64,000 nucleotides of DNA from assembly GCF_055900595.2 (NCBI RefSeq), contig NZ_CM148325.1. One strand, given 5' to 3'. Made by a program: the position numbers and the translations under genes. This document shows, piece by piece, positions 31,626-35,818 of this stretch (position 1 is the first letter of the stretch; the number at the start of each line of letters is the position of its first letter). The notes beneath the pieces are model-generated. The model was not told the DNA's origin, searched no databases, and was given only the letters and a program-made list of their open reading frames with translations.

Positions 31626-32573
31626 ATGCAAAATCGGCTGACCATCAAAGACATCGCGCGCTTAAGCGGCGTGGGGAAATCTACGGTTTCCCGAGTGCTG
31701 AATAACGAAAGCGGCGTGAGTCAGCGCACGCGCGAGCGCGTGGAAGCAGTGATGAATCAGCATGGATTTTCCCCTTCCCGCTCCGCGCGCGCTATGCGTG
31801 GGCAAAGCGATAAAGTGGTCGCCATCATTGTTACCCGTCTGGATTCGTTGTCAGAAAATCTCGCCGTCCAAACCATGCTGCCAGCGTTCTATGAACAAGG
31901 TTACGACCCGATCATGATGGAAAGTCAGTTTTCTCCGCAATTAGTTGCCGAACATTTGGGGGTGCTGAAACGGCGTAATATCGACGGCGTAGTGCTGTTC
32001 GGTTTTACCGGCATAACCGAAGACATGTTAGCCCACTGGCAGTCATCGCTGGTTCTGCTGGCGCGTGACGCAAAAGGCTTTGCTTCGGTCTGTTATGACG
32101 ACGAAGGGGCAATCAAAATCCTGATGCAACGGCTGTATGACCAGGGGCATCGTAATATCAGTTATCTCGGCGTACCGCACAGTGACGTGACGACCGGTAA
32201 GCGACGTCACGAAGCCTACCTGGCGTTCTGCAAAGCGCATAAACTGCATCCCGTTGCCGCTCTGCCAGGCCTTGCGATGAAGCAAGGCTATGAGAACGTA
32301 GCAAAAGTGATTACGCCTGAAACTACCGCGTTACTGTGCGCAACCGACACGCTGGCACTTGGCGCAAGTAAATACCTGCAAGAGCAACGCATCGACACCT
32401 TGCAACTGGCGAGCGTCGGTAATACGCCGTTAATGAAATTCCTCCATCCGGAGATCGTCACCGTTGACCCAGGTTACGCCGAAGCTGGACGCCAGGCGGC
32501 CAGCCAGTTAATTGCGCAGGTAACCGGGCGCAGCGAACCGCAACAAATCATCATCCCTGCCACCCTATCCTGA
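31626..32573 (+). CDS. treR: Trehalose operon repressor, LacI family (315 aa)
   Basis: Translation MQNRLTIKDIARLSGVGKSTVSRVLNNE... with helix-turn-helix; the ORF-track start at 31566 is an over-extension. Confidence 0.9.
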   Translation: MQNRLTIKDIARLSGVGKSTVSRVLNNESGVSQRTRERVEAVMNQHGFSPSRSARAMRGQSDKVVAIIVTRLDSLSENLAVQTMLPAFYEQGYDPIMMESQFSPQLVAEHLGVLKRRNIDGVVLFGFTGITEDMLAHWQSSLVLLARDAKGFASVCYDDEGAIKILMQRLYDQGHRNISYLGVPHSDVTTGKRRHEAYLAFCKAHKLHPVAALPGLAMKQGYENVAKVITPETTALLCATDTLALGASKYLQEQRIDTLQLASVGNTPLMKFLHPEIVTVDPGYAEAGRQAASQLIAQVTGRSEPQQIIIPATLS

Positions 32574-32612
32574 TCGTTTCCTGAACGATAAATTGTGATC
32601 TTCGCTGCGTTT

Positions 32613-32626
32613 CGGGAACGTTCCCG
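32613..32626. promoter_or_regulatory. Putative TreR operator (perfect 14-bp palindrome) with adjacent CRP-like half-site
   Basis: cgggaacgttcccg is a perfect palindrome 66 bp upstream of treB; a TGTGA motif lies at 32594-32598. Confidence 0.5.
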
Positions 32627-32691
32627 TTTTTAAATTTTTCCGCGCACTATATTCTGCAGCCAACCAAAAATGTCATCTGCCATGGGGCTTT

Positions 32692-34113
32692 ATGATGAGC
32701 AAAATAAACCAAACGGATCTCGATCGGTTGATTGAACTGGTCGGCGGGCGCGGCAACATTGCGACGGTGAGCCACTGTATTACTCGCCTGCGCTTTGTCC
32801 TCAACCAACCGGCCAATGCCAGACCGAAAGAGATTGAGCAACTCCCCATGGTGAAAGGCTGTTTCACCAATGCCGGGCAATTTCAGGTGGTAATTGGCAC
32901 CAACGTGGGTGATTACTATCAAGCGCTGATAGCGACGACCGGACAGGCGCAGGTTGATAAAGAGCAGGTGAAAAAAGCTGCCCGGCAGAATATGAAATGG
33001 CATGAGCAGTTGATCTCTCATTTCGCGGAGATCTTCTTCCCGCTGCTGCCCGCGTTGATTAGTGGTGGTTTGATCCTCGGTTTTCGCAATGTGATCGGTG
33101 ATTTGCCCATGAGCAACGGTCAAACGCTGGCGCAAATGTACCCTTCCCTGCAAACGATCTACGATTTTCTATGGTTGATCGGTGAAGCGATCTTCTTCTA
33201 CCTGCCGGTCGGAATTTGCTGGTCAGCGGTGAAAAAAATGGGCGGCACGCCGATCCTCGGTATCGTGCTTGGCGTGACGCTGGTTTCCCCACAGTTGATG
33301 AACGCTTATCTGCTCGGGCAGCAGCTACCGGAAGTATGGAACTTTGGCATGTTCAGCATCGCCAAAGTGGGCTATCAGGCACAGGTTATTCCGGCACTGT
33401 TAGCCGGGCTGGCGCTGGGCGTGATAGAAACTCGCCTTAAGCGTATCGTGCCGGATTATCTCTATCTGGTGGTGGTGCCGGTCTGTTCGCTGATCCTCGC
33501 GGTGTTCCTCGCCCATGCGCTGATTGGTCCGTTTGGTCGCATGATTGGCGATGGCGTTGCCTTTGCGGTGCGTCACCTGATGACCGGCAGCTTTGCCCCC
33601 ATTGGTGCGGCATTGTTTGGCTTCCTTTACGCACCGCTGGTGATCACCGGCGTACACCAGACCACGCTTGCTATAGATTTGCAGATGATTCAAAGCATGG
33701 GTGGCACGCCAGTGTGGCCGCTTATTGCGCTGTCGAATATCGCTCAGGGCTCCGCCGTGATAGGCATTATCATTTCCAGCCGCAAGAGCAATGAACGCGA
33801 GATCTCCGTACCTGCCGCTATCTCCGCCTGGCTTGGGGTCACTGAGCCTGCAATGTACGGCATCAACCTGAAATATCGCTTCCCGATGCTGTGCGCGATG
33901 ATTGGTTCTGGTCTGGCAGGATTGCTATGTGGTCTGAACGGCGTTATGGCGAATGGCATCGGCGTAGGCGGCCTGCCGGGAATTCTCTCTATTCAACCGA
34001 GCTACTGGCAAGTGTTTGTGCTGGCAATGGCTATCGCCATCATCATCCCGATTGTACTCACTTCGTTTATCTACCAGCGGAAATACCGCCTGGGTACGCT
34101 GGACATTGTTTAA
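32692..34113 (+). CDS. treB: PTS trehalose-specific EIIBC component (473 aa)
   Basis: Translation MMSKINQTDLDRLIELVGGRGNIATVSHCITRLRF... with the EIIB cysteine motif. Confidence 0.9.
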   Translation: MMSKINQTDLDRLIELVGGRGNIATVSHCITRLRFVLNQPANARPKEIEQLPMVKGCFTNAGQFQVVIGTNVGDYYQALIATTGQAQVDKEQVKKAARQNMKWHEQLISHFAEIFFPLLPALISGGLILGFRNVIGDLPMSNGQTLAQMYPSLQTIYDFLWLIGEAIFFYLPVGICWSAVKKMGGTPILGIVLGVTLVSPQLMNAYLLGQQLPEVWNFGMFSIAKVGYQAQVIPALLAGLALGVIETRLKRIVPDYLYLVVVPVCSLILAVFLAHALIGPFGRMIGDGVAFAVRHLMTGSFAPIGAALFGFLYAPLVITGVHQTTLAIDLQMIQSMGGTPVWPLIALSNIAQGSAVIGIIISSRKSNEREISVPAAISAWLGVTEPAMYGINLKYRFPMLCAMIGSGLAGLLCGLNGVMANGIGVGGLPGILSIQPSYWQVFVLAMAIAIIIPIVLTSFIYQRKYRLGTLDIV

Positions 34114-34162
34114 TTTTCTTCGGGGCGCAATTGCGCCCCCTCGCATTTGCAGGAATAACGTA

Positions 34163-35818
34163 ATGACGAATCTTCCCCACTGGTGGCAAAACGGCGTTAT
34201 CTACCAGATTTATCCCAAGAGTTTTCAGGACACCACGGGCAGCGGTACCGGCGATTTACGTGGCGTTATCCAACGCCTGGACTATCTGCAAAAACTGGGC
34301 GTCGATGCTATCTGGTTGACCCCCTTTTATGTCTCTCCCCAGGTCGATAACGGATACGACGTAGCGAACTATACGGCGATAGATCCCACTTACGGTACGC
34401 TGGACGATTTTGACGAACTGGTGACGCAGGCGAAATCGCGCGGCATTCGTATCATTCTCGATATGGTGTTTAATCATACTTCTACCCAACATACCTGGTT
34501 TCGCGAGGCGCTGAGCAAAGAAAGCCCTTACCGTCAGTTTTATATCTGGCGCGATGGTGAACCAGAAACGCCACCGAATAACTGGCGTTCAAAATTTGGC
34601 GGTAGTGCGTGGCGCTGGCATGCGGAAAGCGAACAGTACTATTTGCATCTCTTTGCACCAGAACAGGCGGATCTCAACTGGGAGAATCCGACGGTACGCG
34701 CAGAACTGAAAAAAGTCTGTGAGTTCTGGGCCGATCGCGGGGTCGATGGGTTACGCCTGGATGTAGTGAATTTGATCTCTAAAGATCCGCGTTTTCCTAA
34801 TGACCTGGATGGCGACGGGCGTCGCTTCTACACCGACGGGCCACGAGCACACGAGTTTTTGCACGAGATGAACCGCGATGTGTTTACGCCTCGCGGTTTA
34901 ATGACCGTGGGTGAAATGTCCTCCACCAGCCTTGAGCATTGCCAGCGATACGCGGCACTAACAGGCAGTGAATTGTCGATGACCTTTAATTTTCATCACC
35001 TGAAGGTCGATTATCCCGGTGGTGAAAAATGGACGCTGGCTAAACCTGACTTTGTGGCGTTGAAAGCATTGTTCCGCCACTGGCAACAAGGAATGCACAA
35101 CGTGGCATGGAATGCCTTGTTCTGGTGTAACCACGATCAGCCGCGCATTGTTTCTCGTTTTGGTGATGAAGGGGACTACCGCGAACCTGCGGCAAAAATG
35201 CTGGCGATGGTGCTGCATGGCATGCAGGGAACGCCATATATCTATCAGGGCGAAGAGATTGGCATGACTAACCCACATTTCACGCGCATTACTGACTATC
35301 GCGACGTGGAGAGCCTCAATATGTTTGCCGAACTGCGCAACGATGGGCGTGACGCCGAGGAGTTATTGGCAATCCTCGCCAGTAAATCCCGTGACAATAG
35401 TCGCACGCCAATGCAATGGAGCAACGGCGATAATGCCGGGTTTACAACGGGTGAACCGTGGATTGGCCTGGGCGATAACTATCAAGAAATCAACGTAGAA
35501 GCCGCGCTGGCCGATGAGTCCTCGGTGTTTTACACCTACCAAAAGTTAATCGCACTGCGTAAGCAAGAAGCCGTCCTGACATGGGGCAATTACCAGGATC
35601 TGCTGCCAGACAGCCCTGTATTGTGGTGCTATCGCCGTGAATGGAAGGGGCAAACCTTGCTGGTCATTGCCAACCTTAGCCGTGAGATCCAACCCTGGCA
35701 GCCAGGGCAAATGCGCGGAAACTGGCAGCTTGTGATGCATAACTACGAAGAAGTCTCAGCACAACCCTGTGCCATGACTTTACGGCCTTTTGAGGCCGTC
35801 TGGTGGTTACAGAAGTAA
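34163..35818 (+). CDS. treC: Trehalose-6-phosphate hydrolase, GH13 (551 aa)
   Basis: Translation MTNLPHWWQNGVIYQIYPKSFQDTTGSGTGDL... with GH13 motifs DAIWLTPF and GVDGLRLDVV; the ORF-track start at 34016 is an over-extension. Confidence 0.9.
   Translation: MTNLPHWWQNGVIYQIYPKSFQDTTGSGTGDLRGVIQRLDYLQKLGVDAIWLTPFYVSPQVDNGYDVANYTAIDPTYGTLDDFDELVTQAKSRGIRIILDMVFNHTSTQHTWFREALSKESPYRQFYIWRDGEPETPPNNWRSKFGGSAWRWHAESEQYYLHLFAPEQADLNWENPTVRAELKKVCEFWADRGVDGLRLDVVNLISKDPRFPNDLDGDGRRFYTDGPRAHEFLHEMNRDVFTPRGLMTVGEMSSTSLEHCQRYAALTGSELSMTFNFHHLKVDYPGGEKWTLAKPDFVALKALFRHWQQGMHNVAWNALFWCNHDQPRIVSRFGDEGDYREPAAKMLAMVLHGMQGTPYIYQGEEIGMTNPHFTRITDYRDVESLNMFAELRNDGRDAEELLAILASKSRDNSRTPMQWSNGDNAGFTTGEPWIGLGDNYQEINVEAALADESSVFYTYQKLIALRKQEAVLTWGNYQDLLPDSPVLWCYRREWKGQTLLVIANLSREIQPWQPGQMRGNWQLVMHNYEEVSAQPCAMTLRPFEAVWWLQK

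Follow-up and report, generated by a model that had tools for sequence, protein, structure and literature searches.

Without glucose, treBC is activated, and TreR represses it as long as trehalose-6-phosphate is absent (PMC3938415). In a preprint (bioRxiv 10.1101/2025.04.02.646877, citing Horlacher & Boos 1997), trehalose-6-phosphate is described as the inducer, and trehalose as an anti-inducer that stabilises the binding of operator DNA. TreR is a LacI-family repressor, and the rules by which proteins of this family recognise their sites have been set out by Camas, Alm and Poyatos (2010, PMC2978694). The hinge helix makes contact with a central CG in the operator, an Arg at AA-20 goes with a G at NT-6, and NT-5/4 are set by the residues at AA-15/16. 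The combination (K,S) at AA-15/16 pairs with GG at NT-5/4 (44 sites, r = 0.99; Table S1, PMC2978694), and other Lys-Ser members of the family, from distant taxa, have sites of the TGGGAACGTTCCCA type (PMC2978694). For E. coli K-12 treR (VIMSS 18266), Dataset S1 of the same paper gives a single site, the computational prediction cgtttCGGGAACGTTCCCGttttt, in the downstream intergenic region. A full-text literature search for the operator sequence returned only an unrelated Streptomyces paper.

We identified the three genes of this system in the window (the whole stretch of DNA analysed, 64 kb in length):

31626..32573, + strand: treR, a 315-aa LacI-family repressor with the recognition helix GKSTVSRV (TIGR02405, 588 bits vs a cut-off of 357)
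32692..34113, + strand: treB, the trehalose PTS EIIBC component, 473 aa (NF008236, 969 bits)
34163..35818, + strand: treC, trehalose-6-phosphate hydrolase, 551 aa (NF008183, 1213 bits), with its start aligned with that of K-12

All three scores are far over the NCBIfam equivalog cut-offs, and thus the gene identities are secure. The treB reading frame opens with ATGATG at 32692. The gene order (mgtA / treR-treB-treC-nrdD) is the same as in E. coli K-12, and the genome is E. coli-like. The spacer between treR and treB aligns with that of K-12 MG1655 without indels and with one difference, C32647 (A in K-12), which is outside the palindrome considered below. This base is at position -15, just 5' of the -10 hexamer, and neither allele makes an extended -10 TG. 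The TreR protein differs from K-12 TreR at three residues, all outside the recognition helix. Of 5426 complete E. coli genomes, 5417 contain a match to the 401 bp surrounding the site; the shorter stretch 32591-32640 (50 bp) occurs without change in 5008 of 5387 E. coli genomes. Over positions 32400-32800, identity is at least 99 % in only 12 of the 5417 matching complete genomes and 95-99 % in the rest. A scan of species-representative genomes recovered two Escherichia coli loci (L002, L003), and TreB has 97 % identity to each. The window seems to derive from a divergent Escherichia lineage.

A sequence-only reading of the window had reported an exact 14-bp inverted repeat 66 bp upstream of the treB start, with a TGTGA half-site resembling that of CRP 15 bp farther upstream, and had proposed the repeat as the TreR operator. 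Both elements are present at these distances. The repeat is as follows:

32613..32626, no strand: predicted TreR operator, the 14-bp palindrome CGGGAACGTTCCCG (K-12 TreR site list in PMC2978694, conservation)

Direct reading and an independent script both give a perfect reverse-complement palindrome. It is separated by 65 nt from the ATG at 32692 (an offset of 66) and by 14 nt from TGTGA at 32594-32598 (an offset of 15); the span 32594-32626 runs from the start of TGTGA through the end of the palindrome. The dyad centre is between 32619 and 32620 (C32619/G32620; CGGGAAC/GTTCCCG), with a central CG step. An inverted-repeat search of the window did not report the palindrome, as its arms abut and are shorter than the limit of that search, but the script confirmed it.

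Perfect palindromes of at least 14 bp occur in the 64 kb at the expected rate (4 observed vs 4.7 expected from first-order Markov simulations), as they should if this one were a chance feature without function. Thus, symmetry alone proves nothing, and the case depends on location and conservation. For the 118-bp spacer between treR and treB, the rough expectation of a 14-bp palindrome is 0.009. The exact 14-mer is found in a single copy within the window, and allowing up to 3 mismatches gives about as many matches as chance would (4, with 2.79 expected).

A TreB scan of a genome collection provided 80 loci from about 25 genera of Enterobacteriaceae, with TreB proteins that are 86-97 % identical. 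The 12-bp core of the palindrome, GGGAACGTTCCC (32614-32625), is unchanged 5' of treB in all 80 loci, each with a distinct sequence. The outermost C..G pair is not conserved, and is C..A in most genera. Across these sequences, a perfect palindrome of 14 bp is confined to Escherichia and a few further lineages. As the outer pair is variable, the conserved element is 12 bp rather than 14. The proposed identity as the TreR operator is supported, with one correction: the palindrome is perfect over 14 bp in the window, but only the inner 12 bp are conserved among the 80 sequences.

The ungapped consensus of the 80 distinct sequences, anchored on the core, reads TGTGATC.tcGC....TTTCGGGAACGTTCCCaTTTT, with TA..cT following 24 bp past the core. 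Information is 2.0 bits per column in the core, in TGTGATC and in the TT after the core, and near 2 bits at the T, A and final T of TAnncT. The spacers and flanks have 0.3-0.4 bits. In all 81 sequences measured, TGTGA and the core lie at a distance of 20. A core that never changes while the spacers around it vary, and that keeps its distance to both the CRP half-site and the -10 element, is not the pattern of a functionless accident; this pattern effectively refutes the chance reading, to which we give almost no credence.

The promoter was located from published K-12 data. SMRT-Cappable-seq identified reverse-strand transcripts of treB-treC and of treB alone, both from 4466210 (PMC6131387 Supplementary Data 1), and this start was mapped to the window through the indel-free alignment. 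The features of the control region are:

32662, + strand: treBC transcription start (K-12 4466210, reverse strand; 8155 SMRT-Cappable-seq reads), giving a 30-nt leader
32650..32655, + strand: -10 element TATTCT, at -12..-7, placed from the start site and conservation
32627..32632, + strand: putative -35 element TTTTTA, at -35..-30, a weak hexamer abutting the palindrome, placed from the start site
32591..32612, no strand: putative CRP site, the 22-mer AATTGTGATCTTCGCTGCGTTT, with its centre at 32601.5 (-60.5), a class I position

Relative to this start, the palindrome occupies -49..-36, with its centre at -42.5; its K-12 coordinates are 4466246-4466259. The operator in the 1997 DNase I footprint of Horlacher and Boos is said to be directly 5' of the -35 element, which agrees with the geometry derived here. 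The first TT of the -35 element is invariant across genera, and nearly all of the 80 sequences have TAnncT as the -10 element (T 0.96, A 1.0, final T 1.0). A sigma-70 consensus scan detected no promoter in the region. This result fits a weak, CRP-dependent promoter, and the hexamers were placed by the published start site and by conservation. In the start-site table of Kim 2012, treB is absent.

The left half of the putative CRP site (TGTGA, 32594-32598) is perfect and invariant, as is the longer TGTGATC in the 80 sequences. The right half, CTGCG, is poor (it equals TCACA at 1 of 5 positions) and varies among genera. Overall, the 22-mer matches the consensus at 14 of 22 positions by our count. 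The centre at -60.5 is one base from the canonical -61.5, which is within the uncertainty of the start site. The invariance of TGTGATC, its fixed spacing to the core and the centre at -60.5 from the published start support TGTGA as the strong half of a putative CRP site.

The palindrome conforms to all three LacI-family rules when it is set against the TreR encoded beside it. TreR (KSTVSR) has Arg at AA-20, and NT-6 of the palindrome is G on both arms. NT-5/NT-4 are GG/CC, matching the Lys-Ser of TreR at AA-15/16. The central CG is present, and the half-site is thus C-G-G-G-A-A-C from NT-7 to NT-1. Furthermore, the K-12 treR site cgtttCGGGAACGTTCCCGttttt listed in PMC2978694 is the sequence found in the window. 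Identity with K-12, conservation (the core in 80 of 80 loci), position relative to the mapped start, the recognition rules, the adjacent tre genes and the site of PMC2978694 all argue for the proposed function. The palindrome is very probably the primary operator of TreR, which is encoded just upstream.

Could the palindrome be bound, in place of TreR, by a different member of the LacI family whose operator is centred on AACGTT (e.g., Cra/FruR or PurR)? The central AACGTT and the dyad are common to many operators of the family, including sites listed in PMC2978694. The flanking bases are more discriminating, given that GG at NT-5/NT-4 goes with Lys-Ser at AA-15/16, which TreR carries. The site co-occurs with treR in 79 of 80 loci (the exception, L033, has no treR in the 3 kb upstream), and local regulation of an adjacent operon is the norm in this family (PMC2978694). 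Repression is also lost in a treR deletion (PMC3938415). We consider binding by such a regulator in place of TreR very improbable.

The palindrome is followed by TTTTTAAATTTTT, and the two together could form a Rho-independent terminator of treR, instead of or besides an operator. A pattern scan does flag such a structure 40 nt past the treR stop: five stem pairs, four of them GC, closing a loop of 4 nt, and then a T run. The region is transcribed only as the 3' end of treR, as the treB start is downstream at 32662. However, the predicted fold (-8.4 kcal/mol, z -0.51) is no better than that of shuffled sequence, and RNA folding of both the palindrome region and the whole spacer gave nothing better than shuffles. 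In most genera the outer C-G pair is lost and the T run is down to 4 T, whereas the 12-bp core is constant. There are no compensatory changes in the stem, only invariance, which fits recognition by a sequence-specific protein and not a stem. K-12 Term-seq (PMC7815308) assigned no 3' end to treR or to the region upstream of treB, although treR may be too weakly expressed for one to be seen.

Three Enterobacter loci in which treR no longer adjoins the treB promoter also bear on this question: L038, L074 and L033 (Enterobacter cloacae, Enterobacter quasihormaechei and Enterobacter asburiae). In L038 and L074, a 1.7-kb insert lies between treR and treB. The block from TGTGA through the palindrome remains with treB, 1.7 kb from treR, which is not expected of a treR terminator, and no copy of the block was found behind treR in these two loci. 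In L033, no treR was identified within the 3 kb upstream examined, and the block is still with treB. The core of the predicted operator is kept in 80 of 80 loci, and treR was found in 79 of 80. Overall, a terminator of treR is an unlikely identity for the palindrome, although a minor additional role in termination may exist in E. coli.

In each of these Enterobacter genomes, the treB control block is intact. The insert in L038 (1137-2900) has two minus-strand open reading frames, of 159 aa (Hcp-like) and 230 aa (unannotated). The former is taken to be Hcp-like from its N-terminus. The insert in L074 is of the same size.

A second repeat occurs immediately after treR:

32573..32589, + strand: inverted repeat ATCGTT-tcctg-AACGAT, starting from the last base of the treR stop codon and containing CGTTTCCTGAACG

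Its hairpin has a predicted energy of -5.0 kcal/mol (z -2.9). CGTTTCCTGAACG (32575-32587) recurs 33 bp downstream as the direct repeat CGTTTCGGGAACG (32608-32620). By our count, the upstream segment matches the operator in the left half only (7/14), and its conservation is limited to Escherichia and Citrobacter. In some genera a hairpin of different sequence is found there, followed by TTTATT (e.g., AGCGTC/GACGCT in Leclercia, AGCCTC/GAGGCT in Silvania and CGCT/AGCG in Citrobacter). Many genera lack a hairpin at this place, and a conserved treR terminator maintained by compensatory changes in the post-stop hairpin was not established.

RegulonDB lists two TreR sites at treBC, according to PMC3505978, and a TreR-derived chimera behaves as if looping (PMC3505978). 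The repeat at 32573-32589 may be a weak 3' hairpin or terminator of treR, or may be an auxiliary TreR half-site or the second, weaker TreR site of RegulonDB. A function of the operator beyond occlusion would take one of two forms. TreR could act with 32575-32587 (centre about -75.5), bracketing CRP by looping or trapping, or the palindrome and T run could terminate weakly and so shield treBC from transcripts reading through from treR. We regard such additional functions as doubtful.

Other palindromes and transcript ends were identified in the course of this analysis. A perfect 18-bp palindrome, GGGGCGCAATTGCGCCCC, is at 34122-34139, in the 49-bp spacer between treB and treC, and is identical in K-12. 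K-12 Term-seq shows a very strong 3' end at 4464728 (425,606 reads), 5 nt past GGGGCGCAATTGCGCCCC (window ~34144). SMRT-Cappable-seq shows an end at 4464727, and most reads from the treB start end there or within 50 bp. These 3' ends imply that, in the interval separating treB and treC, many treBC transcripts either terminate or are trimmed back. As GGGGCGCAATTGCGCCCC lacks a U tract, it looks like a processing-protective or attenuating hairpin. Another K-12 Term-seq 3' end is at 4466176 (window ~32696), 4 nt into the treB reading frame (47,785 reads; not Rho-dependent; intrinsic terminator score 1.4), and corresponds to a short, leader-length RNA from the treB promoter. Elsewhere in the window, a perfect 24-bp palindrome, AAGGCCGGAGCATGCTCCGGCCTT, at 18156-18179 is followed by TTTTT on the + strand and is located between convergent open reading frames of 951 aa (+ strand, ending at 18135) and 407 aa (- strand, ending at 18189). 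This arrangement points to a terminator shared by the two reading frames. At 1682-1697 there is a further perfect palindrome, ATCTATTATAATAGAT, which is 16 bp long and AT-rich.

At class I promoters, the alpha C-terminal domain and sigma region 4 of RNA polymerase dock between CRP and the -35 element. In the arrangement proposed here, a TreR dimer would bind the GGGAAC/GTTCCC dyad at -42.5 of the treBC promoter and would sit between the putative class I CRP site (-60.5) and the weak -35 element (-35..-30). Bound TreR would block docking of RNA polymerase (via sigma region 4 and the alpha C-terminal domain), cancelling activation by cAMP-CRP. Trehalose-6-phosphate, formed upon import of trehalose by TreB, would then release TreR. 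We infer a steric mechanism of repression. The constant distances between the CRP half-site, the operator and the promoter hexamers in different genera are consistent with such close packing, with the repressor filling the gap.

Judged by its sequence and setting, the palindrome is the already described TreR operator of treBp: real, strongly conserved and ordinary. All parts of the textbook treBC control region are present in this genome (CRP site, TreR operator, weak -35 element, and a -10 element), and the finding has little importance beyond correct annotation. The cross-genus comparison adds two refinements: an operator core of 12 bp, not the 14-mer, and a CRP half-site, operator and hexamers at fixed spacing.

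The closest described system is the K-12 treBC promoter (treBp). Its TreR operator is identical base for base, at the same position of the spacer and between the same flanking genes; there is no difference in the operator, and the spacer has one substitution, at -15. Operators of the LacI/GalR TVSR subgroup (e.g., lacO-sym, the purF operator and the CcpA cre) are likewise short dyads with a central CG for the hinge helix. They also have a G at NT-6 that is read by Arg AA-20, and derive specificity at NT-5/NT-4 from AA-15/16. Unlike these, the half-site here is GGGAAC (NT-5/4 = GG), which is specific to the Lys-Ser class, and the hinge position of TreR is Met rather than the usual Leu of the family, based on our own alignment. 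In common with class I CRP sugar promoters (lacP1, with regard to the placement of CRP), CRP is predicted about 60 bp 5' of the start and the -35 element is weak. As at those promoters, a specific sugar repressor acts on top of catabolite control (PMC3938415). The treBC promoter differs from them in that the dyad takes up exactly the interval (-49..-36) left between CRP and the -35 element, and in that the right half of the putative CRP site is degenerate and unconserved. It differs also from lac, in which the operator is over the start site, whereas the predicted TreR operator is 5' of the -35 element.
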